A stretch of DNA of 63,747 bases, counting the filler, from Klebsormidium nitens (taxonomy: Eukaryota > Plantae > Klebsormidiophyceae): assembly GCA_000708835.1 (NCBI GenBank). It is 6 parts of 6 records of this genome, joined end to end, with 100 filler letters (N's around TTAATTAATTAA, not from the genome) between each part and the next. Parts side by side here need not be neighbours in the genome. Positions count along the whole stretch, not along the records: positions 59,451 to 61,990 come from DF238672.1; 5 more parts are not named here. One strand, 5' to 3'. Position 1 is the first letter of the stretch. Each line of letters starts with the position of its first letter. The notes under the pieces were generated by a model. That model saw only the letters and a list, made by a program, of their open reading frames with translations. It was not told the origin of the DNA and ran no database searches. A program made the position numbers and the translations under genes. Shown one piece after another: positions 2,220-63,747 of the stretch.

Positions 2220-2274
2220 TGAACACTGTTATTTCCAATAATTGTCGTTTGGGCAAACGATTGTCTTTTTGGGG

Positions 2275-10690: not shown

Positions 10691-10769
10691 GGGCCGCCAC
10701 TCTCACATGTCGGCCGGCTTGGTTGTAGCGTACGAGGAATCGTACGACTAAAGCATAAAACGGCTGGAC

Positions 10770-11285: not shown

Positions 11286-11296
11286 TAAGGTGACCT

Positions 11297-11905
11297 TTGG
11301 CCACACCATGGAAACGGTGTATTCCTTTTTTCTTGGTGCACCGTAGAAACCTTGACTTGAATGGACGCAATTTTGGGCTATCGTCCTCCAACCACTTTTG
11401 CAATCGAGCTGTTTTGGAGAGTGGAAAGACCGCAATAGTGAGATCTTACAGAGAGTTTGGGATGCTTGAAACCATTCTTGATCCAGCAGCCCTTGCAGGA
11501 ATCCGCGCTCTTGCAGAACCATTCAACTTGCGTCATATTACCAGAGCGCTCGTGCGATCTCTGAATGCTGAAGGATTTCACTCATATTGGGATCGAAGCG
11601 GCATCCACGGCCCATTTGCTGTCAAGGTCAGTTGGCGGGTTGCTCTCAAGAACGCATCTCGCGCTCAACGTCAAGCAAAGAAGCTACACTCAAAGGAATC
11701 CCGATTAAAAAACATGTCGCATGAACGAGAGTCAATCCTTCCAACCGCTTGCACAGACATCCGTGCCCGTTCTCCATTGAGTGCCCAATATGCCCCTAGC
11801 ATGGTGTGGAGTGATGCGCCAATCTTGGAATTAGAGGCGCTTGCAAACCCCAACAAGGTTTGCCATGCCACCGAATCTTCACGGGATGCCTCTCCTAGAT
11901 ACTGA
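11297..11905 (+). CDS. Hypothetical protein (first ATG at 11462)
   Basis: Only a 202-codon open frame between the repeats and the recombinase; no recognisable motif. Confidence 0.3.
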   Translation: MATPWKRCIPFFLVHRRNLDLNGRNFGLSSSNHFCNRAVLESGKTAIVRSYREFGMLETILDPAALAGIRALAEPFNLRHITRALVRSLNAEGFHSYWDRSGIHGPFAVKVSWRVALKNASRAQRQAKKLHSKESRLKNMSHERESILPTACTDIRARSPLSAQYAPSMVWSDAPILELEALANPNKVCHATESSRDASPRY

Positions 11906-12164
11906 ATTGCTAAGAGGCTCCGTTTTGGAGATTGTGTACACCTATATTCGTGTATCTGGCAAAAGTCGGACATCGGCCGATAGTGGAGTGGCGTAAAAGC
12001 CCCTATGTCGGGTTTTAGAAGCTTTTGCGTGTGAGATAACCATGAAAAGCTCCTAGGCGCACCAAAACGGTGAAAACAAAGATGAACACGGATATTCGGT
12101 ATCTGAGCACTTTGTGGCCAGATGCCGTTCATCTTTAATTTCTTGGTATCCTGATATCAGGAGC

Positions 12165-13217: not shown

Positions 13218-13257
13218 ACGCTCAGGCTCTTCAACCAACTCGCCACTTACCCCTCAT

Positions 13258-13593
13258 TCAGGAGACTTCGATACTTGTGAACGCACCTAAAGGGACGGTG
13301 GGGGCTTTGAATTCGCCTCCCATGTCCGAGGGGACAGCCGTCCGGGGCACATCATACCCGGCGTCTATCAAGCGTCGAATTGTGGCTTTGTGGAGCTTTC
13401 TTGTGGTTCCAGTAAGCAAGCGTTTGTATGCTTTTTGCATGAGGATGTTCTCCCGATGTCGGCCATAGTATCTTCGAACGGTCTGCGCGTGTTCCACATG
13501 GTGTTCTTTTTGGTAAGCGCGACTCGTCTCACAAACGCGGCAATGACATGGATAAGTGTCGGTGTCGATCAAAGGACTTGTGATTTGGACCAT
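13258..13593 (-). CDS. Small basic hypothetical protein with CxCxxC motif
   Basis: ATG-initiated 111-aa ORF that fills the space between the recombinase and Prim-Pol genes; CHCRVC, then VRRYYGRHRENILMQKAYKRL. Confidence 0.55.
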   Translation of the reverse strand: MVQITSPLIDTDTYPCHCRVCETSRAYQKEHHVEHAQTVRRYYGRHRENILMQKAYKRLLTGTTRKLHKATIRRLIDAGYDVPRTAVPSDMGGEFKAPTVPLGAFTSIEVS

Positions 13594-13699
13594 GACGCCC
13601 TACAATGAAGCTTCGAAAAAAAGTGGTACGAGAACGCAGATGTCAAGGGAGCGCGTTCCAACCGTCTCATATTCTTTCCTCACTGGAGTATAGAAAGGA

Positions 13700-15384
13700 A
13701 TGGCTACGTCGGATGTTGAACGGGCAAACGCCTCTCGATCCCAGGGGAAGGCTCAGACAGCCAGAGACCCCAAGGCCCTAGGACCCGTCAGCATCAGGAA
13801 CGAGATCCAACGACTCTGTAACAACGGCTTATACGCACTACCAGTGTCCGTCTCTTGGGATCGGAATAAAGGGTCGAAGCATGCTGACTTTCCTGACAAG
13901 TATGCACATATCAAAGAGACAGAGGCATGGGGGCGGTCCATCAATCAAGCGATGAAGGAAAAGCGGGATGCAAACGGGCTTGCAATACTCGCGGGAGTCA
14001 GTGGAGTGTATGTGCTAGATATTGATGTGGCTGCAAAAGGGGGAAAGCGACCAGGGACAGAGCTCTGGCAGCAACTTGTTGAGATCCACGGGGACTCACC
14101 GGAGACACTGAAAGCAAGGACCGGCTCTGGTGGGTTGTATATGTACTTCAAGCTCGACTCTCCAGGTCTCACGTGGAGACGGAATATTCAAGGTCTCAAG
14201 GTCGACGACAAAACTTTTGGCGTTGATGGAAGAGGAATTGGTGGTGTTGTGTTCGCTTCACCAACAAGCTACTTGAATGCTGACGGCGAGCTTGCAACAT
14301 ATGAGTGGCTCAGTGATGGGCCTCCTAGCACCGACGCGTGCCAAGATATGCCCATTTGGCTTGCAGAAATGATCAACAATCGTGCCGGTCATACTAGTGC
14401 GGCGACAAGCGGAGAGGAGCAGGGTGGCAAGGTTTTGGGAGCAAGCATTGATGCGTCCATGCCAGGACGTGTGGAAAGTCCAAGCTTCGAGCAAGATCGC
14501 TCGAGCCCAAGTTTGGAACCGCCACACTGCAGGGAGCTCTTGCTGGCAGAACTCTCAAAATTGCTATTAGAGAAGGCCGGCGATTCAACAAGCACGTACG
14601 CATGGTCGTTACCACACGGCCTGTACGGGACATACTATTGCTACCGGACGCATGGGCCTCGAAGGTGCTTCTTTGGCCATACGCACTCGGGGAGCAACAA
14701 CTTCAATCTGCTCAAGAGGGGACGGCATGTATACTACCGCTGCCATGGAGACGAGTGCTCGCACAAGCCCGCCAAAAAGTTAGGGGTCTTGGAGAACTTG
14801 AAGGCCGCCTTGCAAGATGCTACCGCAGATCCCGTGGATCCTCACGACGACATGCGAGTTGTCACTCAGTACACAAGGGAGACGCGAGATGTGCAGGATT
14901 TGCTGCTCAAGATCGTGATTGAGCACGCCGCTCCTCAAGCGTACGCCAATCTCGGGCGCCTCTTTGCATATATGTACATGATCGAGGGTCGAATTTTGGT
15001 GACCACGAACGAAGCAGAAAGGAGTCGAGATCAGCTCTTTTTTGTCTGGGACGGGACTTCGTGGGTACAAGACACCTCGAATCTGGTTTCGAGCGTCTTT
15101 ACATGTCAAATGGGTTGTCTCTTAACATGGTATGAGAGGCAGAGAGAGAGGTGCTTGGGCACTTTGTACGCCAGCCGCCCCGAATTAGAAGGATTTGTGG
15201 TTGACGGTGTTCTCAAGCCTCTCGACTCCGAACAAGTCAATCCCAAGCAGATGAGGAAGATCAAGATGGCTATGGAGACGTGCGCAAAGGAGCTTGATAA
15301 GATCATGCCAAGTTTTGGAAGGATCAACGTCCAAGATGTTGCTGATGTACGCAAGTGCTTGCACTCTGCTGTTAGAGAGCTGCA
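13700..15384 (+). CDS. Bifunctional primase-polymerase (Prim-Pol) plus UL52-type Zn finger plus start of a D5_N-like domain; truncated by a gap
   Basis: Intronless, more than 560 aa. GLAILAGVSGVYVLDIDV (DxD), TGSGGLYMYF, GVDGRGIGGVVFASPTSY; Zn finger RCFFGHTHSGSNNF..VYYRCHGDEC; FFVWDGTSWVQD. Confidence 0.85.
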
Positions 15385-16297: not shown

Positions 16298-19200
16298 TTA
16301 TCCCCCCGCCACGGAATGCACGGAGCTACATAGCCGGAACTTGGCGAACATGTAGGGGTACTGCTTTTGGTAGTAGTTCCGGAACGAGTCGCGTTTCATG
16401 GCCGGGTGCGTAACGCTTGACGAGCCGCGCAACACAAAGTGACAGTCATCGAAGAAGTCGGTCGAGTATTCGGGGTACTCCGGCATCGGTTTGAACCCGG
16501 GGAAGGGCGCAAAGCGGCTGCAGGGGGGAAGCCGGAGCTGACGTCAGGCAGGTTTCCCATTACTGCAAATGCAAAGGGATGCAACGCAACGGACAGCAGG
16601 ACTTTTTGACGACTGACATTTGGTCCCATTGAACTTGGATATCTTGAGAAGAAAGGAGGTGTCGGACGGACAAAAATCTGCGACGCAAAAGAAGAGTGAT
16701 ACGTTCAAACTATCAGGTCAGCGTTCAGGTCTCCTCGAGTTCGAACGCACGCTCGGCAAAACCCCACTGAAGCGCTGTTTGGTAACGGCCAACGCCGATC
16801 GGGACTCGCTTGAAGATCACACGATAAGATCACACGATAAGACCAGTGCAAGCGCACAGCCCGGACAACAAACCCCGACTCCATTTTCCAGGGCGGCGTT
16901 CCCGTTAATAAGGTGCAATGCAGCTCATTCTCCCCCGACACGAAAAGCTTCTCACCCTCTTTTAAAGAACCGAGACAGAAGCCTTCTTGACGTGCGCTGA
17001 CGACTAGACTCCTCTTCGGTCCGAAAGACGAGTGTGTTTTAAAAGCAGATAGCAGCGCAAAAGAACTAGATCGGGGATCTTTACCTGGAGGTCCATTCCC
17101 AGCCGGCCTCCTTCAAGCAGCGCACGCGATTTTGGACGTCCGTGTCGGCGACGCGCTGGTACTCGGCCTCGGACATGATCCGGTAACCCAGCGACTTGCA
17201 GAATGCCAGCGCCTCGCTTAGGCTTACCAGCACCGGCTCGTGGGCGACCTGGAAAGTACGAAAGGGACTTTTCCATCGGGTATCTCTTTGCAAAGAGGGA
17301 TTGTTTCTGACATCAAGTGGCGGCTGTTGACCTTGTCGGTTCTCGAGGGGCTCGTTCCGCAAGGTGGGACTTTCGAGGGAATAACCGTCGACGTTCGAGA
17401 AGCTGCTGTGCACGAGAACCTGACTCTCTCCAGGAATGTGTTCGATGATCTGCTCATACAGTCTTCATGGTGTTGTCAGGCTTTATCATCGTTGATCAGA
17501 ATCTTCCTGTTCATAAGCTCAAAGTAGGTCTCAAGATGCAGCTAACCACCACTGTGAGCAACGAGTCGGGTCGAACATTAGCAACCGCGTAAGGGACTTA
17601 CGAATGTCGAGGAAATAGGAACCCAAAGAGCATACCTGGACTAGAATCAGATATGGCGTTCACAGAACGACAGGGCCACTCGGCATTTCTTACCTGCGTC
17701 CAGTGGAAGACCCCATCTGGGCGGTGGACGTAAAAGTCGCCTTTGACGTGCGACCACGTGGCAGGCTGGGATAGGCCGTTAGCCCGGAAGAAGGCGAGGT
17801 CGGTGGCGTCCCACCTGAGAGGCGGGCACTTCACATTAGATTCAAAATGTTGGTGAAGAGAGGTCGTGGATGGTAAGGTATCTGCGGGGCCGCCCGAAGA
17901 ATCTGTTAAAGCTCCAGATAAGTGTAGATTAGCTTACCCTGGCTGAGACAAAGCCCCGTTTGCGTTGACCTCCAAGATGAGCTAGGACATCAAAAGCGTA
18001 GCAGTTGCAGAGGCTGAAAGATTATGCTGTTGCTTCCCGTAGACGCCAGATGAAAACCCCTATTCGGCATCTCACATTCTTGCTCGCAACAAGAAAAGCG
18101 ATAAGGCATGCACGGACGCAGTCCTCCGTGTAGACATCCCAGATGTTGCTTCAATCCTTCAAATCAAACAAACTTTCGCCATCTAAACCCCACGACAGTT
18201 CGCCGTCTGAGTCCAAGTAATGAGGTCAGTCGTCACAAAGCTTTGTTTGACAGTTGTAGATCAATCCTTTGATTTTTTCAAGTCATACCAGCGCTGCGGC
18301 AGCTTACCACTGGTCCATCTCGTAGCCTTTCCGCTCGACGATGAAGTTCCGCCACTGGCCGACGGTCACCGGATCGGAAGCGACCATGAAGTCGAGCGGA
18401 ACGCTCGTTTCTAGGGGCGGGCCCTCGTTGTCCCACACGAACGCCCCGGCATCGTCCTCAGACACGCCCAATGTCTGCAAATATAGACGACATCCATTAG
18501 ATCTCGTAATGCCACGTGTCGATGAACCTATCGAGTTGCGGAGGCTAGCGACCCGCTGCTCAACTTCGTGCCTTAGTTTTAAGGGTAACCTTCGCATCAT
18601 CCACAAAGGGTTTTGACGAACATATTCCACCATTCTTAGAAAGAAAGGGACGGACCTGCGGTCGGATTCTCCTCGAGCTACTAATGTCGATTCGAAAATT
18701 TGCGGTAAATATTATCGCCCAGCTTGCTGCTCAACATACCTCCAACATTCTGCTTCACTCAAATTTCTCAGTTTTTAGATTTCCACATTCCTTCAGCACG
18801 CCACTAACCCCCAAGTCCATTTTCTGAAAAAGAAAGCCTGCCATCTCATGAGCCCATCACAACTGGGCGGAGACAGTCCCAATTCTCTAGAAAGCCGTTT
18901 CGATTTGAAAGGTACCACAAAGAAAAGGCTCTGTGCTTACCACTCTCCCAGCCAGCACCCGCACATCAGGTCGCACCCACTTCTTGGCCCAGTCCCGCGC
19001 GAGCGCCACCGCGCGCGGCAGCTCGGCGGGGGGATCCCTCTCCCACTCCAGCCTCTTCGCTTGCGTCAGCATGTACATCAGCGTTTCCTGGTGCATCCGC
19101 TCGTGCTCCAGGCCCATCTGGAGCATACGGGGGGAGCACTTATGCGCCTCGACCGCCTCCATAACCGCTTCGCGCGTATGGGCGACGTAGCGCATAACCT

Positions 19201-22200
19201 CTTCTCGGGAGGGCCACTGGGGGGGGACCTCCGGATGGGAGTGGCACTTTGACGGGTCCAAAACGACCGGGTCGATTCCCCGGGAGAAGGTGACGTCATC
19301 GGGGGAGGGGGTGACGTGAGGAAGGGCCTTGATCTTGGTGAACGAGTTGACGTGGCCGTAGTAGAACAGGAACGGGTGGCGCATGCTGATTGGCTGCACG
19401 GACCAGTCCTTCACCTGGGCGAGGAGCGCAGAACAGGGCTTGTGAGGAGATTGGCAAAGGTTGGTCAATGTTCTGAGCAACCTAAAGCCAGGGGTACCAA
19501 ACCCCACTCGAACTGCCGGAACCATGTTTCGCGCCATCCGATGATGAAAAACTTTGAATTCAACGGTTTAGATTGCTTTGGGGAGTGTCCCGAGCGCTGT
19601 GTGGACCCCGGTTGGCTTGTAAATTGGGTTTAGCGGTTAGCTATCAAGTAGTTATAGCAATTTTACCTGGTTAACCCTCCTTAATCAGCACAGAATAGCT
19701 CCTAAACCTCTTGTTGCCCCAACGCAAAATTCAAGGGTTACAAACAAGACCCTTGGAAGGTTTGATTCCACCAATTTCCGGGTTGGGGCAATTAGAGGTT
19801 TGGCTGCTAGCACAGGGTTCAGAGTGCAAACCTAATTATCTGGGGTGTTTGGTCCCCCTGCCTAAAGCACCAAGAATTTGTGCAACAACTCATAATTCCC
19901 TGGCTCCTACGGACCGGAAACCCTCACAGAATTCAAGGACAACTGTGCTGCAACCACGAAAATGGAGAAAGCATGCGAAGTTTGAAGAGCAGGGCCTGCG
20001 ATAGCTGGCCAATGCTTCGGGACCCCAAAACGGGGATCCCTAGACGACACCACAAAAGATAGTTTGCGGGATCCCGCATATGACGTGCGGTAAAGTACGA
20101 TGAATACAAACGGCTCAAACCGACGGCCATCCTCTGTTGAGCAAAGCGGCGAAGTAGACATGTGTCGCAAGGAGTGCCCCAACCCCATCATACCTCACAA
20201 ACCCAGTCCCATTACGTCAACTTCAAAGCGCGCTCAGCTCGCAAAGACGCGACTGGCAAAGCGCCCAGAATTGGAAATCAAGCGCTTAACCCTCACCTGC
20301 TTCAGGAAGAAGTCGTCCGTGTCTTGCCAGCACCGCCGCAGCGCCTCTTGCATGGGCAGCAGCATTTGCACGCCGTATTGGCGCGTGCGCCACGCTGCTT
20401 GGACGTAGTAGCCCGACACGCTGGCCAGCCGGTTGATGTCCCCGACAGTGAACTTGCGGGACAGCTCCATCAGGAGCCGTTCCCCGGGGGCGATCCGGAT
20501 CGCTTCGCCATTCTTGCCGGGGAAAACCTCCAGCCTGAAGTAAGGACGGGGCGAATACTGCTTAAGTACGATTCGAAACAGGTGTTCTAGATAAGGATGC
20601 ATTGGGGTGTTTGACACATTTAGCAGTTGACAGTAGGACGGATCTGAACACGATAAAGTCCCATGAGTTTTGGCTGAAGAGCGGATGTTCCGTGTTCCGG
20701 TACGGCAAAGTAACGTTCTTGCAAAGCGGGTAATGGACGGAGTAGAACCTGTAACCGTTGTGCCAGAGTGTCCGCCGCATGGTAGCAACGTTCATACAAA
20801 ATTCCGACTGGGCTCGTGCATAACTCCGTCGCGCCCGTTTTGCCACAGTTTCAACAAGGTAAGAGGCCGTTAGCCCACACAGCCTGTCTCTGGCAGAGAA
20901 ACAAGAGAGCACAATGTAAACTGGGTCCGAAATGGCGCCTCACCCTTCTTTGAACTGCACCCACATCTCGACGCGCCGCATCTTGGCCGAGACGACGACC
21001 TCGTAGACCCAGTTCTTCATTGCGGCGTCCAGGCGCTCGGGGGCGAGCCCCAGGCTGAGCAGGGCGTTGCGAAGGCCGTTTAGAATGAACTCCTCGGTCA
21101 CGCCGCGGCTGTCGTGGTACGCTGCGTGGAGGACCTTCTTGTCCTTCCACAGGTCCGTGCAGAGAAACACCTGCAAATAGTAGTCGGCGTAGGGGTTCGA
21201 CCGCCATCAATGACGAAGCAGACAGTGTCATAGATGTAAAATTCGTGTGGACAGAGGCGTCCGAAGTGTCCGACAGCAACTATGAATGCCTTCAGGAAGG
21301 ATGTGCGTCTCTAAGAACCCCCTTTTCACAACGAAAGCCCACTTCGGAACGGGAAATTGTAGGTCTCAATCATTTTGAAGAAATAAAGCGTTGTTTTTTA
21401 CCACTTGGGACACCACGGTAATCTGCTGAGCTCCCTCGATAACAATCGACAAACACTTCTCAGAGAAATGATTCGTATGCAAGCTGCAATGAGCTAACTA
21501 GTGCTGCAGAGAACGTCAGGCATTGACCTGCATTCAAAAATCTTAGAAAGTTCACGAAAGATTGGTTTGTCAGAGGCTCACAGGTCGACTTGAAATATGT
21601 GAGAGGCTTAGAAGTGAAGGCAACACCTTGGCAGAAAGGGCTGTGGATCAGTGGCAATGGGCGCAAAAGACGTAACCTCTAGCAGCATGGACCCAAGCAG
21701 TAAAACAGCCTGTTTGGCAAAAGATCGATGCAAAGAAGATCAGGGACAGACTTGAGAACAGTATGAAGCATTCCTGCTACTTAGACGAGTCGTAACGTTC
21801 AAACCGTGGCGTCTGTCCATCCCTGCAACTCCATCTTACAGTAGAGGTTTTTTAGGTGGTAAACCACGCACCCACGATCTTCTTTCCATTGTCTTTGGTC
21901 CTTCGCTCCTCCCTCTACCCATGAACTCCTTCCGCGTCTCCAGAAGACAAGACCAGTTCTCTTGAAATTCTTAACGCCTCACTCCCCTAGTATGTCTTAC
22001 GACGTTACGTAACGACCCACTCGTCCCGGACCACTCTTACCACCAAAGCTCTGAGCCAGAATATGCGTAAGTATGCCAGACTGCTTGCTAAAACGTGGCG
22101 TGCAAAATCTACCAGACTTTCCATGAACAAGAGACTGTCAGAATGCTGCCTAGACCCGCGCAGGTTACGAAACCACATTCTTCGAGGATAGGACACCCAC

Positions 22201-24517
22201 AATCTACAAGAATAAGCAAAAATTCGCACCTGGCTCTTCTGGCCCGCTGCCACGAGCATGTCCTTGAAGAACTGCGCGGCGCCGTCGTTGGTCAAATTGC
22301 CCACGGACGAGCCCAGCCACATGATACACAGGTTCTCCGTTGGGTGGAGTTGTCGAACTTTCTGGAGCCCAGTTATGTACTCCGCTTCCACCAAGTCGAT
22401 GTCTTCGGCCTTCAGTCCAGTCACCAAGCTCATCAGGTTCGTTTTGGCCTCTTCCAGGAAGGAGGCGGAGACGTCGATGCCCGCAAATTTGCTGGCACCG
22501 TCTCTGCAAAGGGTAAAAAGCATTGGGGGCTTTTTCTTACTTGGTGGAGTAAAACTGAGGCGATCAAATTGGGCCTGTATGCTGACAGGATTGAAGGTGG
22601 TACGTCAGGACATGGTTATACTTTGTTCCAAGGTGCAAAGTTGGATTATCTGGGGGCATTGTTGTGATCAACTTGTCAGCAGAGCTAAGACTTGGGAGGG
22701 CTTGTATACTAGGGTAAGAAGCCCAAGTGACTAACATAAATAAGAGAGTGTCACGACAGAAGACAATTGTGGGTTGTCGTGAACCAGTGCTAGATGGAAA
22801 TGATACCAGGAACAAGGAGACTGCATGGAAAGCCTTTGTAATGCGACCAGCTCACCAAGACCCGAGAAGCTGACCCTAGAAGGCTCGGGCTGAAGCAAAA
22901 AGCCGTTCATGAGGAGAAAACGAGACTTGGGACAACTTGAAATTTTGGGTAGGCACATCAAGTAGCCTCCTCTGCCTACCTATTGCAACATTTCACAAGA
23001 TGGGCGGAGGCTTTTGAGACTTCAGGCCACAGATTGCATCCCAGTGCCTAGGAGCCCAGTGCCATTTTCAGTACAGTGGAAGGAAGGTAAAGCCAGTGCA
23101 GTAGGAGAGATGGGACATATCTGTCCCGCTTAGGCCACAAATTTTATTCACCTACAAGCTGGGCGAAGGTGCGCTGAATTAACCCCATTGCTGGCAAAGT
23201 TGCCTTTTAACAACATTGACCAAGGCTGGTTCCAAACTACCATTTCCCAAATACCCAGATACCACCAGTGCATCATTGCGCCCTTATACTCAGGCGCCCA
23301 CATCAGAGATGCGTAAGGAGACCCCAAACTGACCGTGGGTGCTGTCTCACATCAGCACATTTCAGGGTAAGATGTGTCGCATGCATGGGAGGGAGCTTTC
23401 TGACGCTCCCCCACGTTCCAAAGACCTCAAACAAGCAGTATGCATGCAGACCTTGACTCCAGCTACTCTGACACATGAGCGTGAATCTTTCACCAGTCAG
23501 CAAAATTTTGGGAGTGCCCAAAGGCCTTGAAGTTTAAACGCTTCCACTTCAGGAAGTTACCAGACATCTAAACGTGCTTAAGCACTCCCCTTCACCTCAA
23601 GCACTCCCCTGACGGACCTAGAAGTAGCAGTCGGTCCAGCGGCACTTGGCAAAGATGAACAAACCCTCAAAACAAGGGTGTGTTGAAAAGTCCACAATTT
23701 AAGGTCCCCATTAGCTGAGCTCTCCCTCATCTCAAAGCGCAAGAAACAGGAAGGATAAACATTAAGATTGCATAGTGCGCTCAACAAAACCTCCAAAGGC
23801 GCCACCTCACCTCTTGATCAGAGCTGACAGCAGCAGTCCCGTCTTCCTCGCGGTACCGCAGCCCAGTTCGACGATGACCGACCCCTTCGGGACGTGACTC
23901 ACGATGTCATCTGCATTCTTTTCCAGTATCGCTTGCTCAGCCCTAAATGGATAGTACTCCTCGAGCTCCGTTATCTGCTCATAGAGCTCGCTGCCCTTCT
24001 TGTCGTACAAATAGCTACAGGGAACGGTCTTTGGGCTGCCCCTCAGACCGGCCAACAGGCCCTGCGGACAGATGGTCGGCATTGTGGGCGTGTGGAGGTG
24101 ACAAGACAAGCAATGCTGGGGTTTAGAGGAGGCTGGGTTTCCGTACAGCAGAAAAGCTGGACTCGGCGCTGGAGACTAGACGTGATGGCAAAAAGTTGTG
24201 TCTCTTTGTGGGCTAGAGGAAGATGTGCCAAATGGTGGCAAAAGCAGAGGAAAATGCACTCTCCAGAGCAGGAGAGGGAACACCACGTCGTAGCGCAAGA
24301 GGCGTTGGAATGAACACCCAATGTGGCGGGATGGGCAGCAGAAAACAGGCGGTCGCACGCGGTACGTGGTGGCACTTCCAGCTGAAACGCAGCTGGCACT
24401 GCGAAACTGGGAAGTGAAGCCTACCCTGTTGAGGTCCCTCGTTGCACCTTTTCGAAAAGGTCCAAAGTAGGTGACAAAAGCTGGCTTTATGGTGCCTCTG
24501 TGAGGCTCCTTCCGCAT
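16298..24517 (-). CDS. egt1: Egt1-type ergothioneine biosynthesis fusion (EgtD histidine methyltransferase + EgtB-like sulfoxide synthase), about 742 aa
   Basis: Exons 24517-24425, 24061-23811, 22503-22230, 21170-20944, 20534-20297, 19414-18941, 18474-18308, 17814-17694, 17248-17085, 16517-16298 (2229 nt, phases consistent). EgtD motifs PKTVPCSYLYDKKGSELYEQITELEEYY, VELGCG, WLGSSVGN, ELSRKF. DinB_2 motifs RHPFLFYYGH, RGIDP and metal-binding EHERMHQETL. FGE domain WDNEGP, WEWT, YPEYSTDFFD, RDSFRNYYQ..YPY. The true start may lie further upstream. Confidence 0.92.
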
Positions 24518-36219: not shown

Positions 36220-36500
36220 TATACGCACGCCGTCTGGACAGTTCTGGACATATTCGTGGACGCAAATTACGGTCTTCATAGACAGCAGGGCTGTCTATGA
36301 AGAGCAGGGTCCATCTACAAAAATCCGCTGGATGGACGGCTCGGACGGCTCGGACAGCAGTCCCAGAGTTCTCAATAATTCCGAATTTCCGAATATCTCA
36401 CCCACAAATTACGCTCTTCATAGACAGCATGCTGTCCATCAGGTGCGGAGTTCGTCTACAAATTCCCCTGGATAGACAGTAAGGGCGGGTCGGACGGAAG
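36220..36500. repeat. Cluster of short hairpins and duplicated GGAC(A/G)G motifs
   Basis: Perfect 14-bp arms at 36273-36286 and 36290-36303 (TCTTCATAGACAGC-AGG-GCTGTCTATGAAGA); degenerate copy near 36407-36438; GGACGGCTCGGACGGCTCGGACAGC near 36333. Confidence 0.75.
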
Positions 36501-37599
36501 TATTCTGAGTCCCAAAGTTTCAAGTTTCCGCCTTCAGCCTCAGGCTTCGAATTGTTGCGGCTGCCTACGGTGCACAGCTCGCAACACTGAAGTGTCATCA
36601 GTCTCTCCCGCCTTTTTTTTGCTGACTAGCTAGGCGATTGTTCTTCGAGAAGGTACGAGTCCTGCTGCAGCTGCTCAACTTGAAGTTGCTGCCACAGTAC
36701 TGAGTACAGGTAGGGCTGGGTCTGAGAGCAACCTTTTGCATAGTCACTTGTCAGAATCAAGGAGGCTGTGACTTAAACGACGCAGAGAGGAGACTTTGAC
36801 CTGACCAATAGCCTATACTAGGAGGCGACACTCGTGATCTGCTAAGAAACAGAAGGAGCAATACCAGGGGTGTAGAGTGGGAAGCTACATGAGAGCACAC
36901 GCCATACTTAGAAGTGGCAGCGAAGGGTTTGCTGGCAAATCTTCTGCTTGGGAGTCTTTTTGCGAACCGGGCAGCAGCTGGGCCTGAGGCAGCCGTCCAA
37001 AGACGCAAACTTCCGTGTTGAGCTGAGTGGAAAGTTCAGCAACGCGCTGTAGGAGACACTGAGCACTTCACATTGAATGGGCCCGGTGGGTCACCATCAG
37101 GTATTCGCTTCTTACTCCGCTTTCTAACGCTCTCAGTCAGCAGTAAGTGCCCCTGCAGACTTCCATCGATTGTTCAGCTGATGAGAGTGGATCAAAATGC
37201 AAAGTCCTGCTGTTTAAAGAAGGAGAGCTTGCAAAGCAGCTGCATGAACGGCCGCAGAAGTGGCCCTGATGGCAGAAGGGTTGCAGAAAATATCATATAT
37301 GTGAGACAAAAAAAAAAATTCCCGGCAAATTCTGATTTCGTGCAGATATAATATCAAGGCATAGTTCTAGGTGTTCTTCTGTTTACTGAGGATATGATGT
37401 ATGACAAGCAGGGAGTAGGAAATGGCAACTTTGGTGGCTGCATGATCAGCAGCAGCGACGTGCGCTGATGGCAGTAGGGTTGAAGAAGAGATTAGAGCTG
37501 TGAGACAAGAGTTTGTTTCTTGTTGAGTTGGGCATGGCGCTCGTGACCAGAGACCAAGTACTGTTTTTAATTGCAGAAAATGAACTCCTGTTTCGAATT

Positions 37600-39859: not shown

Positions 39860-42286
39860 GATGCTCGTCAACCTAGATGACTTCAAGGATTTTCAAGAGA
39901 AGCTGAGGGAAGAAATGCACAGAGCTGGCATGACTTCCATGAGCAACAAAGATTTGCAGGTAGGCATCTCTTGTAATCTTCGTAGTTGAAAGTTTGTCCC
40001 GATAGGAAGCACGGTTGTCGAAAAATCTGTCTTTTTGGAGCCTTTTGTGAGATGAACTCATAGTGTGTACAGTTGTGTCCGGTTCCTTCTAAATATATAA
40101 GCTTTGCGTCTATTGGAGCAGTTCTGTCTGTGTAAGAGGACTTGGGGCTTGTCCAAATTATTGAAACTCCCAGGCTTTGTGAGACTGCTGTCCAAGCCGT
40201 TTGTGCCGTCCATGGAGACAACTTTGTGATAGAAAGTGTGTCTTGATAGACAGCACGGCTGTCATCAAGCACATTCTCATTTGTGAAATCTCGTGAGAGG
40301 GCTTGGGGCTCGTTCTAAATCTAAAAGCCCACAGTTGTTGGGATTGCTATCAAAGCTCTCTCCTTTTTCAATTGAAAGAGAGTTGTAGGAAGTATGTCTC
40401 AAAGCATGGCCATCCTGAATGCCGTGCTTTGCCTTGTAGGGGACCAGAGGTGATGACCAAAATGCCGTTGAAGGCATCTCAGCTGAGCCCGCATTGGGGC
40501 TAGCTGGCGAAGGGGATGCTGCGGAAGAGGGTGCACGTGTCACGAATGCGGAGGGGGCAGAGCGCTCCGACTTCCGCCAAAATGTGAGTACTCTGTACAC
40601 TTTCGCTGCTCGTCAAAAATCCATCACCGATTGGGAGGCTTCAATGCGCAGCTTAGAGAGCACAGCAATGCCACTTTGATGTCGCTGTGGTTACTTAGCA
40701 GGTCCAATATTGGCTTGATCCACTTTTCGGGACTTTCCCGATTGCAGCCTGGAGGTCTGGAAAAGATCGTCCTAAATACGTACATGCACTTTGCAGTCCT
40801 ATGTGCCAACGTCCCCCGTCTACAACAAGCGCAACTTCCAAGCGACACATGATGCTGACTTGAACGCCCCGCTGGTGAGTACCGTCTCACCTCTTTTGCT
40901 GTTATGGTGTGCGGAAAGCCCGTGCTTGTTGGTAAGAGTGCCGTCCATGGAGACGAAACTTGTACTACGGATTCGTCTCCATGGTCAGCATGGACGGCAC
41001 TGACGGCACTTTTGGGGAAGCTCCTCTATTCATTTTTCTCTGAGCTCTCAAAAATCATTGCGTGCTTGATGACAGTGGTGCTGTCCATGGAGACAAAACT
41101 TCTACTACGGAATTGTCTTCGTGGACAGCACGGACAGCACTGATGGCTCTTTTGAAAAGCTCTCTTTTTTCTTTACTTTTTGACCAGGTTCCGTGCTTGA
41201 TAAGAGGAGTGCTGTCCATGCTTCTCCGTGGACTGCACAGAGTGCAGTGACGCTCTTCCAAGAAGCTCCTTGATGTACTTTGATGAGGTTCCGAAACTAT
41301 GTCTTTGATGACAAAAGTGCTTTGCTTTCTTAGCTTCAATTAAAAAGCTCTGCTATGTCTGTTTGTTGTGCAGTGTCACGACCCTAAAGCTAACACTTCT
41401 CTGTCTACCACACACAGGAAAGGGGCAAAAAGCGCAAACATGACGAAGCAAGGGGCAAAGCTGGTGCGGCGAGCGAGCCATGTGGAGAAGGTCGCGAGCA
41501 GGTGGTCGAGAGTGAGACGGCGGGTGCAAGGGAGGAGTCGGTAAGAGCATGCAAAGCTTCTCATTATCTACTTCATGTCTCGTTCCACTTGGTAGACTGT
41601 GACTTTTTGTGAGGTTTGCAAAGTATTGTCTGCGCCGTCCGTGCAGTCCATGGAGACACTTTTCTAAATGAACGGTTGTCTCCATGGACGGCAGTATTGT
41701 CTAGCTCCGCAGTCCTCACTTGAGACATTTTTGACTGTTGATAACGTTTGAGATTCTCTGACATCTCGGACGTACTGTCTTTGCTGTCCGTGCTGTCTAT
41801 GGAGACAAAAACCGTAGTAGATAGCGCCTCTCCATGGACAGCACTGCTGTCAGCGCTTGTGAGCCTTCGACTTTCTGTGCAGACAGTTCGTTTTTCACCA
41901 GCATACAGGCCACACCGTTTACATTTTTCAAGCTATATTTGAGTCAAATCGAACAGCTCGATGTAACGAGCAGGTGCTTTGCAGTGGTGAAGCCACTTAG
42001 GCTGGCAAGTCTGCCGACTTTTATTGCAAGCCAACTTTTGGAAAGCAAGAAGTGAAAAAAAAAACTTTCATGCACTCCTTTCATGCAGGACTCAGAAGCC
42101 TCGTCGCAACGAGCAGCGTCTTCTGGTGGGGACGACTGCGAAGAGGCTGACGACGAGACCTCTGAAGAGGACGAGGAAGAGACCATGTCGGACCGGGAGA
42201 TGTTGGACAACCGCCTCCAGCAGGTTGACTCTGCCCATGATCATCGTCGTGCGGACCAAGAAAGAGAGATTGGTGCAGATCGGATG
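39860..42286 (+). CDS. Spliced acidic/low-complexity gene fragments inside the TIR element
   Basis: Exon-like blocks near 39860-39960, 40439-40583, 40798-40875, 41419-41541 and 42089-42286, each with an AG acceptor and GT donor. Confidence 0.45.
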
Positions 42287-42680
42287 GTGGGTAACTTGTT
42301 TTACAATCTGTTCAGCATTGTTGGATTTGAGCTTGACTGATTTTAGCAAAGTGGTGGGATCTTAGGAACCGATATCCTTTGAAGGTTTGAAGATTGTCCG
42401 CCTCACTTCGGTTTTCGTTTTGAAAGCAGCGCATCTATGCCACCAAGCGCTGACAGCAACGCTGTCTATGTAGAGGCGCCATCTACTACAGTTTTGTCTC
42501 CATGGACAGCGCAGCCAGCGCGGACAGTGCTTTCAGGATCTTCTGAATTTTTTGCTTTCTTTTCGCTGACAGCCCACCGAGCACGGACAGCAGCGCTGTC
42601 TATGTAGAGGCGCCATCTACTACAGTTTTGTCTCCATAGACAGCGCGGACGGCGCGGACAGTGCTTTCAAGATCTTCTGA
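40186..42680. repeat. Dispersed hairpin repeat family GCTGTCCATGGAGAC-N(~20-25)-GTCTCCATGGACAGC, at least 7 copies in both orientations
   Basis: Copies near 40203-40256, 40938-41010, 41078-41147, 41631-41700, 41782-41858, 42444-42548 and 42585-42680. Confidence 0.85.
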
Positions 42681-42949
42681 AAGCTCCAACGGAAAAAAAA
42701 GAGTCTTGCAAAAGCAACGGCTCACCGGGACGCTTTTCGCAAGGACGGTATCCCCACTGTCTCTTTGTGCCGCTATCAATGTGTATGGCGGACTTGAGTC
42801 CAGAACGCGCCAGAACAAAGCGCATTGAGCTTTGTTGAATTCCAGGGAGCCCCGCAGCTGGGCGGGTCTTAGCCCAGAACGCATCAAAGGAGGGCGGATT
42901 GAGCCCAGGCTAGTCCGGAAAGCCCTTGTGCGAAGTGGGCGGGACCTCA

Positions 42950-56900: not shown

Positions 56901-58246
56901 TTCAAACGTCCCCTTTGATGTCAACCGTTCTTCACGACCCAAAGTCAAGTGGATTTTCATGATCTCGGGTTGTCAGGCCGTTTGCAAGTAGGCCAGACCG
57001 GCAACTGATGCAAATGAAGCTTGGTCTCACGCGGCGTCCGAGCGCCCACTCAGGGGCATCTATTGCGATACTCTGCTGATGTAATGTTCCCGGCGACCGC
57101 CAGATTGCGTTCGTGCGCCTTCGGGTCGCTCTCTCCTGTGATTGCAGACACCCACGCCCCCTTCTCTAGCCTTCCACCCCTTTGATGCGTAACCACAGTT
57201 CAATATTGAAAAGCTGGTCTTTCCGGGCGTAGCACTTGGTATCAAGGCCTTCGCGAAGCACCAGCGGATTGTTATTACGCCCTTAACTGCCCTCAAGCAA
57301 GACCACGCTCTTGGTCGTGCAGATATCTGGACCGACGGCTCGTACGCCTTCTCGACCGGGCTCGACCAGCGTCTGCGCTGCTGGCGGCTCGAGGCAGCAC
57401 GTTCCTCCCCCCAAAAGCGCCCTGCCACGTACCCCCCGGGAGCAGCGCCCGGGATTTCCCCGTCACCTTCATTGTCAAACGGCCATGGTCCGCACGGCTC
57501 TTCTGTGGACGGCAATCCTACTGACGGCTATTCGGACGGTCAACTTGTAGAGGTGTCTGCGTGCGTGACGGACGTGCCGGAAGCGGCCGCGCTTACAGTT
57601 GAACGAACTGCCAGGTGAGGAGCCATAGAGGAAGCAACAAAATTGTAGATTCTCCTGGATGCATACGCTACGTCTCAGAGTTGAGTGGAATCCGTCGCAG
57701 TGTCCGGTTGAACCGTGTGTGAAGCGGCAGTCCGGTCGGAGCAACGTTTACCGAAGCATGCGTTTGCTTGCTAGAACGATGGTATCGCTCGGTCCCCCCC
57801 TCAACATACTTGAAAGCAAAGCTCGCGCGTTCAATGCCTGATGCTTCTAGATTCCCCACGTATTGGGGCAGGCCAAAGTCTGCTACCTTTCATGTTGCGG
57901 TTGGACGGGGTAAAGGGGGAATGCGTGAGGAAACGTACGAGGGTAACATCAGAAAAAAAGAATCGACTTGATCAAGATCAAAAAAATAAGAGCAGAGAAA
58001 TGTAGGTGCAGTCACAGCCACAAACTCGGCACTCAAGGCTCCAGTACCATCGCTTCCCATCTGCACTCTGTACGCAAGGGCTTGCATCCCGCTTTTTCGT
58101 GTCCCTTGTAGATCAAGCGAAAGCCCCTTGAAGCTGTCAAATCTTTGTGCAGGGGGTCCTACGCTGTTGCCGTCGGTGGTCGGGGGTTACAATTCTTGGA
58201 GGTACATCTGCCACATCAAGAGAAAAGTCCAGCTCTGAGGACGTAG
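47929..58246 (+). CDS. WDR6: WDR6/Trm734-like WD40 protein (tRNA 2'-O-methyltransferase partner), about 2053 aa
   Basis: Exons 47929-48085, 48391-48836, 49216-49398, 49887-50183, 50841-51136, 51537-52464, 52936-54179, 54614-56838, 57323-57614, 58153-58246 (6162 nt, in frame). Motifs GVRVHGI, CLLYSM, GTIYNE, GHEGSIHRV, GHTARIWD, TASEDCTCRIW, GHTGRGIWR, CGGWHRPHSF, FHGRELH, HQSGVNGL, AHSSAVK, TGLDQRLRCW, VAVGGRGLQ. An alternative in-frame ATG lies at 47899. Confidence 0.9.
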
Positions 58247-59450
58247 CATATGACGCCATACGGAAGCCGGACCAGGGCCTGCATTTGCCACGTTTCAAAG
58301 TGCTGGATTATCAGCGACGCGGTCCAACGAGGCAACTGAACGCCCTTTTGAACAGTTGAGAAATTGCGTCGTCGCCCCCAGTCTGAGTGACTGCACTGCT
58401 TATTTTGTTGCCTAATGTGTCTGCCAACCGGTCTGTTTCATGCTCGTACTTCCAATCAATGTTGCGTCCAGAAGCACCGATAAGCCTCGCCGTGCCGTGA
58501 CCCCTGAGAACCCGCACATTGACAGGCTATGCATTAGGATAAGATGCCGGTCAACTGAAGTTGCGCCGACCTAGGAGGGCCCGAGATTGGGCCGATCAGC
58601 AGCACATGCATTGCGGCTCATCAACGTTTGAGCAACCATCTGTCCACATCGACATGACGACGTGACTCTGAATGAGCTTTGTAAGCTATTAGTCCGGTCG
58701 CGCCAGGCGCTGTGCAACTCTACTGACCATATAAACTCAGTGGTTATAAGTTTACGAAGAAACAACGGTCAGAGATCGGCAAAGCCTTAAAGACGAAGAT
58801 GGCAAAGAAGACCGTGTATGGTTGTCACCATGAGCGCTATATAACAGGATTTTGTGCAAGGTAGCCTCTGAGATCACTTACAGACGGTGCGAGAATCACG
58901 GTACAATCTCTATACACGACTCATATCGCCGGGCTGGAATGCAGTCGATCTGGCATGTGTAAATTACCGAGACAGTCTACAGCCGCCGAGCCGCGGAGTC
59001 AGCACAGCTTGATACGACCTGGCGGCCGCCACAGCTAGGCGGCCGGCCCGCGGGTCTCAGCGCCGGGTTTCGACGAGTCCGAGTCGACGACGTACAGGCA
59101 CCACAGCCGTCGGACACGTGTCCGTGCTGGGTTGGATCACTTCGATCAAGCCCTCTCCCGCCAAATCCTGCAAAGTGGATGATCCCCTCACTGTCAGTGT
59201 CAGGGCCCGAGCTGGCCGCTCTTCCGCTCTGCCGATTCTCGGTCTTGACTATGTTGACTAGACCGGTATTGGCTCCGAATCCTAGCCTCTTACTACTAGC
59301 ATGGAAAGAAGAGAAGAGGTGCATTGCTGAGTCTAGCTGGCGTTGCGGTTNNNNNNNNNNNNNNNNNNNNNNNNNNNNNNNNNNNNNNNNNNNNTTAATT
59401 AATTAANNNNNNNNNNNNNNNNNNNNNNNNNNNNNNNNNNNNNNNNNNNN

Positions 59451-61990
59451 GAGGGCTCGCGCGACATCCTCGTCATCGCCGATCCCAAGCGTAACGCGGT
59501 CTTTGCAAAGTGCGACAGCACGCGTCTGGACTCAGTGACGGGCGTGTGCTGCAAGGGGCTGCCCGCGCGGTACCTGGGCCCGTTCTACGTGGACGTCGAG
59601 ACCTGGAAGGACGGGGCGGTGGAGGTGAACATGCGGTACCTGGAGCGGAAGCCGCTGGCCGCGGCGCCCATGGACCTGCAGCTGATTCGCGGCGGGTTCC
59701 AGGAGCTGACGGACATGGTCGTTCTCAACGACGTTCTCAACAAGTGAGTGTCAGAGCTCGTTAGGCCCTACTAAAAGACCCAACTCTTTGCTTGAGAGCG
59801 TCTTTCGCGAGATGTGGTCCGACCCGTTGGTGAACCAGGCCGAACTTTTCCTCCATTCAGAGGCATATGGCAAGCAGTCTGGCCATTTTTGTTGGACCGC
59901 ATCCTGCCAATGACTCTTATGAACTGTTCGAGATAGTCTTGCGCAAGGTGTGGTCCAGTCCTTTCGCCAGTCAGGCCGTCCATCCTCCCCTTTCTTGTTC
60001 AAACGGCTCAAGCACTTTTGCCCTTTGTCGGACCACGCCGTGTCAGTGATTCTTAACCGTTGGGGAGAGCCTTGTGCAAGGTGTGTCTACTTGCGCAGAT
60101 CAGATTGGTCGTTGAAAGGCTTATGACAATCAGTTTCTAGTCGACAGTCAGTTCTTCGTTAACTGGACCGCACCTTCTCAATGTTTTAAAGAAACTGTTG
60201 GAGAGAATCAGACCCAAGGTGTGGTCCAGCCCGTCCGTAGATCAGGTCGGCCATTCAGGCCATTGAAGAACATGCGGCAATCATTTCTGGTTCCTGGACC
60301 ACACTCTGTCAATGTTTATAAGGACTCCCCCTCTTCTCTGAGCCGAGCCTAGCGCAAGGTGTGGTTCACTCGTGCAAATCAGATTGGCCATGAGGGCCGT
60401 TCAAAGGGTTCTGACAATTGGGTTTTAGTTGACAATCAGTTTTTAGTTGACTGGACCGCACTCTGTCAATGTGGTCCAGTCGTGCAGATCAGATCGGCCG
60501 TCGTTCAGGCCGTTCAAAAGGCTTCTGGCAATCAGTTAGATTTAGTTGACAATCAATGTTTATTAAAGAAACCATTGAGAGAGAATCTGGCCCAAGGTGT
60601 GGTCCAGCCCGTCCGTAGAACGGACCGGCCATTCAGGCCATTGAAGAACATGCGGCAATCAGATTTGGTTCACTGGACCACACCCTGACAATGTTTATAA
60701 AGGACCCCCCTCTTTTCTGAGCCGAGCTTTGTGCAAGGTGTGGTCCAGTCTTGTGTGATGCTTCTGAACTGGCTTCTTTCTTGGTGGTTGTGTGAGCGGC
60801 TTTTCAAGGCAGATCGACGCTTATGAAGGACGTTGCAGGTCAATGCTTTCACAAATGGGACAACACAGTCGCCTTGGCTGAGCACTTGAACCCGCAGGTT
60901 TACTTTCAGCTGGCTCATGCAAAAGCGACTCCTCTTTGCAGGTGGCAGACTGGCCGCTACAAGGCGGCGCTGATCAGGAGCCCATGGACACTGCAAAATC
61001 GACGACCACCCGGGCCATCCTCCAGGAGCCCCCCCGACCAGAGACGGCCCTCGCGATCACCTACCGACAGACACAAGCCAGCGATGCAGCTGGAAAGAAC
61101 CCTGATTTTGCGCACTACGGCGAATTAAAAACGAAACGGGGGCGCGAGGTCGGGGAGCGCTTCATTGAGCCTCTCGCCGACAGGGAGCTCTATCCGCACG
61201 TCATCTGCCAGGTCGACAGCCTGCGTGGGCTCGTGGGCAACGACGCGCCCGTTCCGGCCTTTGACCTGGTCATTCTCGACGAGAGCGAGTCCATTCTCGC
61301 GCACCTCTCGGCCGACACCCTGTCGGTGAGAACCGTCATCATCCGGCTGATTGCCGAGCTGCTTCGCCGCGCGCGCAGGGTCATCTGCCTGGACGGACAT
61401 CTGGGGCAGCGGACCTTCGACTTCCTGACGCTGCACGGGATCCGCTGTTCCCCCGTGATCATCAACAAGCACGTGCCGAAGCGGCCTCTCCAGTTCGAGT
61501 TTCTTGAGGGGCGGGCTGGGCTCCAGCTGTGGGAGAGCGCGATCTTTGAGGCGCTCGAGGCCGGTCAAAACGTGTTTGTGGCCAGCATGTCGTCGGACAG
61601 GGCGCGGAGTCTGGGAAGTGCGGTGGCAGAGCGGGGGCTTGTGGACGAGGGACAGATTCTCGTCATCACGCGGCACTCTGATGGGGAGGTGAAGCGGGGC
61701 CTTGGGAATGTGAACGAGAGCTGGGCAAAGCGGCTCGTCATCATCAGTCCCACGGTGGAGGCAGGGGTGGACTTCAATCGGTCATGGTTCCACAAGATGT
61801 TCATTTACATCTGCAAGAAGAGCACGCACCCGCGCGGGCTTGACCAGATGAAGGGGCGGGTCCGGCAGCTGGTCGACCCCGTGGTCCTGTGCTTTGTCAG
61901 GAAGGGCATCAAGCTGCCGACGACGGGGCCAGAGGGAAGCGGGTACAGGACTGTGATGGGGAAGAATGCGGGACGGGTCCCGAGGCTTGG
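59451..61990 (+). CDS. Spliced UL9-like origin-binding SF2 helicase; partial (gaps at both ends) with a 1-nt frameshift near 60982
   Basis: Exon 59451-59743, intron 59744-60941, exon 60942-61990. Motifs IRS/PMDTAKST (I), LAITYR (Ia), ICQVDSL, DLVILDESESIL (II), VICLDGHL (III), ISPTVEAGVDF (V), QMKGRVRQL (VI). Confidence 0.8.
59945..60750. repeat. Array of ~135-140-bp palindromic units AAGGTGTGGTCCAG...CTGGACCACACYCT inside the UL9-like intron
   Basis: Left arms at 59945, 60078, 60216, 60356, (60470), 60594, 60735; right arms at about 60028, 60163, 60294, 60451, 60673; 60185-60345 is duplicated at 60563-60725. Confidence 0.9.
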
Positions 61991-62266
61991 NNNNNNNNNN
62001 NNNNNNNNNNNNNNNNNNNNNNNNNNNNNNNNNNTTAATTAATTAANNNNNNNNNNNNNNNNNNNNNNNNNNNNNNNNNNNNNNNNNNNNGAAGGATGTC
62101 CTGAGGGACTCGTCCAACAAGAGGACAGAAGTTGTCTTGAGCAGAAAGACGACAATTTTTCTGAGCTGCGCCATCGCTTGAGAACGCCTGCTTTCATGGT
62201 TTCCGCACATGTTAGCTGATCGTGTGTAGTTATCCTGCCAGCTCCCTGCATATAGCTGGCCAACCA

Positions 62267-63040
62267 TCACACAGAAACCTTTAGCCTTGACCGGAAACCA
62301 GACCGTCCCGGTTCCACAGTGACTCCAAACTTTCGAGACACGGAAACAACATTCTCATCAGACACCGGATTGACAGGCAACGAGGCGGATTCTGGCCCAC
62401 CACCCTCATTCTGACAAGATACTTTCTCCTCCACAGCCGACTTACCCTGTATTGAATCAAAGCACCTCTCTGCGTACACACGTTCATCTTCACCCATGCA
62501 CACTCCGTCAGGAAAATTGAGCGCTCGTCGGCGCGCGCCAGCTGCTACAAGCTTCCGCACAACGTAATCATATGCCCGCGCAGCACGCTCCTCACTAGCA
62601 AACTGCCCAACTCTGTATCGCTTCCCAGAAACCTGACAGCTTATCCCGAATGTGCCCTTATAACGGCAGATTCCTTTGTACCTCAAACTTGCCTGACGAG
62701 ATTTAGAGGAGGCCTGCTTTGCCGTAGAATGGACATCAGCGCTTGTTACAGATCCACCCACGCTGCCAGACGTTGTGACAGTCTCAGCTACCACGAAAGC
62801 GCCCGCAAGATCTGCATGCCTAAAGTTGGAAGACATATATATCATCTCCCCAGCGTGCACGCCCACGCTTACGCGTCTAGTCAGCAAGTCTTTCACCGCA
62901 TAGCCTTCCTCCTCTCCAAGCCAACTGACCACTTCTCCTGAGACGCTATCAAACCGCCCATCAAAACTAGTTGCAATGACCCAGCGCTCCAAGATTACAG
63001 CTGGACCATAACGGTCAACATCATCGCTAGGAGACGCCAT
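62267..63040 (-). CDS. Intronless AP2-domain protein
   Basis: AP2 domain at about 62510-62689: RYKGICRYKGTFGISCQVSGKRYRVGQFASEERAARAYD...LNFP. ATG at 63040 (frame open from GTG at 63100). Confidence 0.75.
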   Translation of the reverse strand: MASPSDDVDRYGPAVILERWVIATSFDGRFDSVSGEVVSWLGEEEGYAVKDLLTRRVSVGVHAGEMIYMSSNFRHADLAGAFVVAETVTTSGSVGGSVTSADVHSTAKQASSKSRQASLRYKGICRYKGTFGISCQVSGKRYRVGQFASEERAARAYDYVVRKLVAAGARRRALNFPDGVCMGEDERVYAERCFDSIQGKSAVEEKVSCQNEGGGPESASLPVNPVSDENVVSVSRKFGVTVEPGRSGFRSRLKVSV

Positions 63041-63747
63041 ACTGCGCACCACGGCAAGCAGCACATCTGCAAAAACCGCGCTGTCACAAGCGCCCCTCAC
63101 GATTGATCTCCCAACCTAGTACGGCAAGCTTTTCGGCGCGCCGAGAGTACAGCAGCGCGCATGCACGAGCCAATACAAACAAAAGACACATCGCCGATCA
63201 CCCGCATCGCCAGGAAGCAGAACATCGAACGTCATATATCAGTTTCGAAGGACCACGTGACAAATGCATGCTACGATAACCCTCGATTTCTCGCTAGAAA
63301 GCGGCGACAATGCAAACAAGCAGACCAACGCTTTCCCTGCCCGAAGTACTGTCAATCGGGCCCGCGTCCGCCGATCGTCGGGTGCCCAGGCCACATTAGC
63401 GGCTCGACAGGAGCCTCCGTGTGACATTTAATGCGCATTTAAAATTAACTTCAGTTCAGTCGCCCGACACAAGTCTGACCTCAGCTTTCTGAGGCGACGC
63501 AGCCTACTAGGCGGACCGACAATGGTCGCCGTCAGAGTTGCGAAAGTTCGATGCGAAATCCAGCAACCGCGCCGCTCAGCGCGCCAGTCTCATACAAATG
63601 TAATACGTTTGATGGGGGCCTTTCTCTTTTTTCCTGTACATTTTATCGTCGGACGCCCGCCAATTAAGCTAGGTCAAAGCGCCTTGATCGTCAGGCCCGC
63701 GCCGCGGCGTCGTACAGTGCCCGGGATTGTACCGAACCCTATGTCTC

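Follow-up and report, generated by a model that had tools for sequence, protein, structure and literature searches.

How did a replication gene of viral type come to sit, interrupted by an intron, in the genome of the alga Klebsormidium nitens, and what keeps it there? The locus occupies positions 59451 to 61990 of the window, by which we mean the whole 63,747-nt stretch of K. nitens DNA that was analysed, and is one whole contig of 2,540 nt with an N-gap on each side. The replicase gene, on the plus strand, extends past both contig ends. Exon A (59451–59743), cut by the gap at its 5′ end, encodes the second half of a zinc-binding domain, then the linker that leads to the helicase. It is followed by a phase 2 GT-AG intron of 1,198 nt (59744–60941), with the donor GT at 59744 (GTGAGT) and an acceptor AG that ends at 60941, as read from the sequence and from the RNA joint. 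Exon B (60942–61990), whose 3′ end is cut by the second gap, encodes a UL9-type SF2 helicase with both RecA-like lobes. From the AEP profile and an RNA contig that extends 46 nt into it, the gap at 59351–59450 is expected to hide the PrimPol domain and the 5′ exons. Likewise, the C-terminal profile and a 736-nt RNA contig that aligned over just the last 77 nt of exon B lead us to expect the C-terminal domain and the 3′ end in the gap at 61991–62090.

Contigs from four of 24 sequencing runs were aligned to the locus, three of the runs being putative RNA (X1, X7 and X13) and one DNA (X2); six soil or rhizosphere RNA runs with small shares were left out of the alignment. The 1,198-bp intron claimed by the sequence-only reading is borne out, as the joint from 59743 to 60942 (GT..AG) is present in contigs of all three putative RNA runs, which come from studies P1, P3 and P4, at depths of 1935 (X1), 1675 (X7) and 32.5 (X13), and in no contig of the single DNA run. 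The RNA label of these runs is a guess, and the skipping of the intron itself argues for RNA. Depth in intron bins was 0–7 in the RNA runs, whereas single contigs of the exons reached ~1,600–2,100 in X1 and X7. Exon A is covered by RNA contigs, and junction depth in the RNA runs is about equal to exon depth, as for a fully spliced transcript, although contig depth cannot rank expression of the replicase gene against that of host genes. The locus is a spliced, transcribed gene segment. Its codons are GC-rich, as had been claimed, but not host-like, since GC3 is 0.91 and 0.80 in the two exons and 0.66–0.74 in three host-type exons.

After splicing, the assembled reading frame breaks by one base at a run of C (60981–60983, plus strand), just before Walker A. 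This break had gone unremarked in the sequence-only reading, as had the variant Walker A motif described below and the extension of the gene past both contig ends. Our first guess was a pseudogene, a locus with a broken frame and a decayed Walker A whose apparent RNA derives from paralogs, and the DNA run agrees with it to the extent that no contig with an extra base is listed there (0 of depth 72). In each RNA run, however, three contigs carry an extra C at 60981–60983, and two of these three are otherwise identical to the window over 390 and 607 nt and keep the frame. The DNA-run contig identical to the locus breaks off exactly at the C-run, leaving four letters there that the form in the window does not match. 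Because otherwise identical RNA contigs are in frame and the DNA contig stops at the run, the break is likely a homopolymer error of the assembly. The deviation in Walker A also speaks less for decay than it seems to, as five paralogs share the same motif and A-K-T is found in four unrelated family rows as well. With in-frame RNA contigs in hand, we rejected the pseudogene as a working explanation and consider it very improbable.

Exon B has PF02399 as its sole Pfam match (E 9.6e-14; 50.9 bits, the cut-off being 20). When the structure predicted for it (pLDDT 91) was compared with 48,161 solved chains, the best match was HSV-1 UL9 (Z 21.6, rmsd 3.6, 300 residues, 21% identity), followed by the best cellular chain at Z 18.5. 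Among predicted viral structures the closest were giant-virus helicases, from Indivirus (30%) and Samba virus (28%), and identity to named viral proteins does not exceed 30%. A cellular helicase was rejected on the sole Pfam match together with the higher UL9 score. The Pfam search, the family profile and the viral and solved structure matches thus uphold the proposal of a UL9-family SF2 helicase with affinity to DNA viruses, and we regard the family assignment as near certain. The proposed likeness to the herpes protein itself holds only at the level of the UL9 family, the nearest class being that of the primase-fused proteins mimivirus R8 and ASFV pF1055L.

All SF2 motifs had been called recognisable, and the conserved columns of the family do hold motifs I, Ia (TYRQ), II (DESES), III (LDG), IV (SMSS), V (SPTVEAGVDF) and VI (QMKGRVR), numbered by what we take to be the SF2 convention; Walker A is nonetheless altered at this locus. 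In Walker B (DESES, 61278–61292, plus strand), D101 and E102 are invariant in 80 aligned sequences, and in motif VI (61845–61865, plus strand) Q290, R294 and R296 are nearly invariant. The Walker A variant MDTAKST (60984–61004, plus strand), which marks one six-member subclade, retains the lysine and serine, just as Walker B retains its DE pair, and has an alanine in place of the glycine. The residue before the lysine is A in nine of 214 family rows and G in 193, and an aspartate stands three places before the lysine in 32 of the 214. Judged by these rows, the MDTAKS variant is rare but not unique, and helicase activity of the subclade that carries it is not assured.

What the remainder of the protein would look like is seen in its K. 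nitens paralogs, which start with a low-complexity N-terminus, continue through PrimPol and zinc domains and end, after the helicase, in a helical C-terminal part. Exon A matches the zinc-region profile of the family (E 4.7e-10) and is 89–90% identical to paralogs P0002, P0006 and P0013. Neither an AEP-profile match (best E 0.07) nor a match to the C-terminal profile occurs anywhere in the window. The primase motifs KPYLDLE, KFSLHL and DQSVYTRNRG are retained in the five paralogs that span the region, and the same five retain the zinc ligands C-H-C-C, except that P0005 has one Cys replaced. A family profile built from 23 relatives matches HSV-1 UL9 at 3e-33, with the similarity confined to the helicase, human PrimPol at 1.8e-12, and poxvirus D5 primase weakly. 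The model of paralog P0006 aligns with PrimPol (Z 20.7, rmsd 2.5, 209 residues) and with UL9 (Z 16.9, UL9 residues 29–821, 346 aligned, rmsd 4.3), loosely reaching into the UL9 C-terminal part, and it matches proteins of Bodo saltans virus, Dasosvirus and Indivirus over its whole length. The paralogs make the locus the central part, zinc finger plus helicase, of what is in all likelihood a PrimPol–UL9-type fusion in the class of mimivirus R8 and ASFV pF1055L. The paralogs also have long acidic and basic N-terminal extensions. In P0002 and P0013 the N-termini contain GGVESNPGW and GGIEPNPGW, which lack a final proline and which we take to be 2A-like motifs; such a motif is absent from the window and was found in these two paralog N-termini. 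A ubiquitin-like domain lies upstream in P0005, perhaps from merged gene models.

AEP-SF2 fusions of this general kind also occur in polinton-like viruses. The AEP-UL9 class, in the available text of the two sources, comprises mimivirus R8, ASFV pF1055L and mriyavirus SF2_hel (10.1101/2024.02.29.582850; 10.64898/2026.08.29.747986), and the AEP-UL9 primase-helicases of Nucleocytoviricota that come closest to the algal family also include those of SmDNAV and ostreid herpesvirus 1. The algal family shares with this class a PrimPol domain, a zinc domain, a UL9-type SF2 helicase and a helical C-terminal part, with motifs intact in the paralogs, and its best viral structure matches are the Indivirus, Samba virus and Bodo saltans virus proteins. 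It differs from the class in being nuclear, spliced and multi-copy, in having no virion gene in view, in its Walker A variant, in the long low-complexity N-terminus of the paralogs, and in its identity of at most 30% to named viral proteins. HSV-1 UL9, although it provides the best solved match to the helicase, lacks an active primase according to the portion available of one of these sources (10.64898/2026.08.29.747986).

The gene is one of many. Eight of the 32 longer protein matches are from K. nitens, on contigs of eight different lengths; these eight annotated paralogs are 59–96% identical, the closest K. nitens proteins being at 90–96%, and RNA contigs of other family copies are present too. 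Databases label the proteins 'replication origin binding protein' or hypothetical by automatic annotation. A maximum-likelihood tree of 49 rows, hand-chosen from ~200, unites the locus, the eight paralogs and 14 JGI/ENA metagenomic proteins in a 23-row clade (99/96). Within it, the K. nitens copies make up three deep lineages among which metagenomic copies are interspersed, and the locus belongs to a young six-copy subclade (95/88), marked by MDTAKS, three tips of which are 95–98% identical. Phylogeny, which the sequence-only reading had proposed as a check, therefore places the locus inside a multi-copy clade, not as a one-off capture.

Ten of the 14 metagenomic clade proteins start at the Walker A methionine, three read through an intron-like end into the tryptophan that also ends the intron read-through of the window, and one is uninformative; none of the 14 has a primase in the same frame. 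Sister proteins outside the clade mostly consist of one frame of 1,050–1,175 aa; one of them is an annotated protein of Tetrabaena socialis. Since clade proteins start at or read into exon B and the sisters are single-frame, these sequences suggest that the intron likely predates the spread of the 23-row clade and is common to it. Among exonic differences between copies, 14 of 25 are synonymous compared with 25% expected (p 9e-4; p 0.015 at 33%), a count taken site by site from the 25 exonic rows among 40 listed of 135, with 15 intronic rows set aside and with sites included where all reads differ from the window. The annotations of P0005, P0013 and P0014 appear truncated or shifted at their ends, which may reflect assembly errors like the break at the C-run. 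P0041, P0047, P0065, P0194 and P0195, on contigs of up to 2.03 Mb, form a separate replicase clade in which an intron seems to follow the helicase. This clade likely marks a second nuclear settlement, independent of the first, in another eukaryote. In P0077 and P0193, from EukProt, the helicase is joined to fibre-like repeats, which suggests that annotation merged a neighbouring virion gene and hence that an endogenous small DNA virus resides in the host.

Repeat analysis of the intron revealed about eight diverged units of ~135 bp (59763–60755). Most units hold an inverted box pair, TGGACCRCAC ... GTGTGGTCCA, with the boxes 45–55 nt apart around a partly AT-rich spacer, and ten of the 13 matches to the box in the window fall within the array. 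HSV-1 oriS, in the available description, consists of two boxes around an A+T-rich spacer, and origin recognition by UL9 depends on its C-terminal SAP subdomain (PMC13483431). The layout of the intron units, paired boxes around an AT-rich spacer, is alike, and by this analogy the boxed repeats are a candidate binding site of the replicase. Short inverted pairs number seven in the array compared with a mean of 2.15 and a maximum of five in 40 shuffles; however, four other tiles of the 53 in the window reach 7–11 such pairs, which makes it less likely that the intron stands alone as an origin-like site. Elsewhere in the window, a profile of the intron units gives no significant match, and DNA contigs of another copy hold a related intron with a shorter array. 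Dispersed units of 134–142 bp with inverted GCTGTC/GACAGC arms lie at 36263–36501, 40203–41220, 41763–41859 and 42440–42681. In size and layout they resemble the intron array, they are unrelated to it by profile, and they are possibly non-autonomous elements.

As assembled, the locus has on its left a WD40-type gene with a weak Pfam match, which we take to be 'WDR6-like', and on its right a frame with a weak AP2 match. A Pfam scan of the flanking frames recognised no capsid, packaging ATPase, polymerase or other hallmark gene, and Rfam gave no match on 57600–63747. No convincing terminal inverted repeat lies between the visible flanks, which also revealed no end of an element, no duplicated target and no empty site; the true ends probably lie in the gaps. 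No integrase or recombinase is seen beside the locus, recombinase-type genes being >46 kb away in the window.

The first 15.4 kb of the window (from position 1) contain a reverse-transcriptase/recombinase element, a D5 gene, a recombinase-like frame and a second primase gene, and the sequence-only reading had looked to a link between the locus and this D5/YR region. The link finds no support here: the two share no DNA by self-BLAST, the intron-unit profile has no significant match there, and ~44 kb of the window with host-type genes lies between them. All that the two have in common is homology of the zinc domain, which recurs in the 13694–15384 frame (profile E 7e-9), and direct pairwise comparison found nothing.

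The region has features of its own. A DIRS-like retroelement end with a weak Dam match (E 1.6e-4) occupies 1–3260, along with an opposite-strand gene of the phage-integrase family (E 1.6e-6) and a 140-bp direct repeat at 2275 and 3120. The D5-type primase-helicase gene at 4800–11300 has several exon-like frames (D5_N E 1.9e-9; PHROG primase matches) and is followed by five 107-bp repeats at 10765–11297, of whose motif weak inverted copies (E 0.2–1.1) lie upstream at 5898–6346. At 12057–15384 a 386-aa frame (Pfam E 0.03 only), which presumably carries tyrosine-recombinase-like motifs, adjoins a gap-cut bifunctional Prim-Pol gene (E 8e-14), possibly as a replication-integration module. Exon-like frames at 18890–22604 on the minus strand form a histidine-specific methyltransferase gene (PF10017, E 1.7e-10), likely for ergothioneine synthesis and an ordinary host gene between two viral-type regions.

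The 56 loci that a scan of metagenomes recovered reach no more than 38% identity in their best segment. Only one of them (L002, 3.1 kb) falls in the wider clade, and none of the contigs of the close relatives is among them. Giant-virus-like loci in this set are 22–35% identical and lie outside the 23-row clade. In seven of nine long loci the distant relatives adjoin genes for ribonucleotide reductase, RNA polymerase or poly(A) polymerase, with no match to these in the other two (L021 and L025). One 12-kb metagenome contig (L015) has two UL9-type helicase genes in opposite orientation. Scans of viral contigs yielded no close relative, only two distant loci and two chance matches, and phage records gave 140 weak matches, with at most 26% identity among the 15 matches listed.

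We propose, with about an even chance of being right, that the locus belongs to a long-resident, intron-bearing, virus-derived replicase family that duplicates as DNA and persists as a selfish element. In-frame spliced transcripts, paralogs of different ages, intact primase motifs, a retained intron and the synonymous excess all support this reading. The dispersed copies range from 59 to 96% identity among the eight paralogs, and three deep lineages with a young six-copy subclade make the birth-and-death pattern of a mobile family. At least one other copy keeps a related intron, which shows that the template for copying was DNA and not mRNA. We speculate that the replicase protein would enter the nucleus, that its C-terminal domain would bind short boxes on its own element as UL9 does at its origin, that the helicase would unwind its own locus for the PrimPol domain to prime and extend, and that either the break repair of the host or a recombinase acting in trans would insert the new copy. 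The scheme is modelled on a proposal for viral AEP-helicase genes (10.64898/2026.10.13.758929), in which, in the part available, self-mobility is a hypothesis, 12 AEP-SF3 copies are given for Bodo saltans virus and AEP-SF2 replicases for polinton-like viruses. The algal family resembles those genes in its dispersed, related primase-helicase copies without obvious integrase; they differ in belonging to viral genomes and being mostly SF3, with introns going unmentioned in that part of the text, whereas the algal family is SF2/UL9, nuclear and spliced. The lack of any element end, target duplication, integrase, empty site or terminal inverted repeat weakens the selfish reading, as do the loss of the Walker A glycine in the youngest subclade, the similar-sized boxed arrays elsewhere in the window away from any replicase, and a number of copies, nine, that is small for a transposon family. 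Steady spliced RNA is also unlike a silenced parasite, given that the viral fraction of K. nitens is described as methylation-enriched in the accessible part of one study (PMC12344493) and as methylated in that of another (PMC11244446).

Purifying selection and expression would fit a domesticated gene equally well. Here a gene captured once from a DNA virus would have gained introns and host control and spread by ordinary duplication, serving the alga in, for example, restart of stalled forks or repair of UV and desiccation damage. A transcript fully spliced in three studies, with junction depth equal to exon depth, agrees with such a role, as do an intron likely older than the family radiation, the excess of synonymous changes, the N-terminal extensions and a position that has a host-type gene on either side and, as far as the flanks are visible, no viral neighbour. 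Continuous turnover of copies with very young duplicates, a Walker A change across a whole subclade and a repeat-filled intron with a variable number of units do not, nor do the ends of P0005, P0013 and P0014, unless these are assembly errors, and we regard domestication as doubtful. Alternatively, each copy could be the replicase of a DNA virus that became endogenous, of giant, mriya- or polinton-like type and whole or decayed, with the rest hidden in the gaps. The class of the protein is viral, a relative is annotated in T. socialis, distant relatives stand beside the nucleotide-reductase and polymerase genes named above in most of the long loci, and K. flaccidum/nitens carries several giant-virus inserts, as far as the available text goes (PMC5294986). 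We nevertheless judge this unlikely, as no capsid, packaging or polymerase gene is seen near the locus, the shared spliceosomal intron and GC3 of 0.8–0.9 point to long nuclear residence, the giant-virus-like loci are too distant to enter the clade, and the viral contigs scanned hold no close relative. Algal giant-virus inserts are, in the accessible portions of three reports, clusters of viral genes, intron-poor and methylated (PMC5294986, PMC11244446, PMC12344493); the replicase locus is like them a viral-type replication gene in an algal genome, but it is spliced, gives RNA and has no visible viral neighbour. There is perhaps a slim prospect of an undescribed class of capsid-free, self-synthesizing nuclear elements in Klebsormidium, each with a single spliced PrimPol–UL9 replicase and with intron boxes as origin. 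On this improbable view the D5 gene, intron-rich, with a different helicase and a separate repeat array at 5–11 kb, would be a sister element, and the 135-bp arrays with boxes that recur across the window would travel with such elements as non-autonomous passengers.

Automatic database annotations of the proteins and, from the available part of one report, giant-virus inserts in K. nitens (PMC5294986) were known already. In the literature searched, we found no paper describing the replicase family. Virus-derived algal genes are usually described as intron-poor, methylated and silent. This viral-type replicase family, by contrast, is spliced and transcribed, is under constraint and continues to duplicate, all in a model streptophyte that can be cultured. 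To the R8/pF1055L class, on which little work has been done, it adds a member that is expressed, does not come from a pathogen and has a candidate binding site. If selfish, the family would offer a practicable case of self-mobile primase-helicase elements, which were proposed only recently; if domesticated, it would be a primase-helicase taken over in the lineage leading to land plants.
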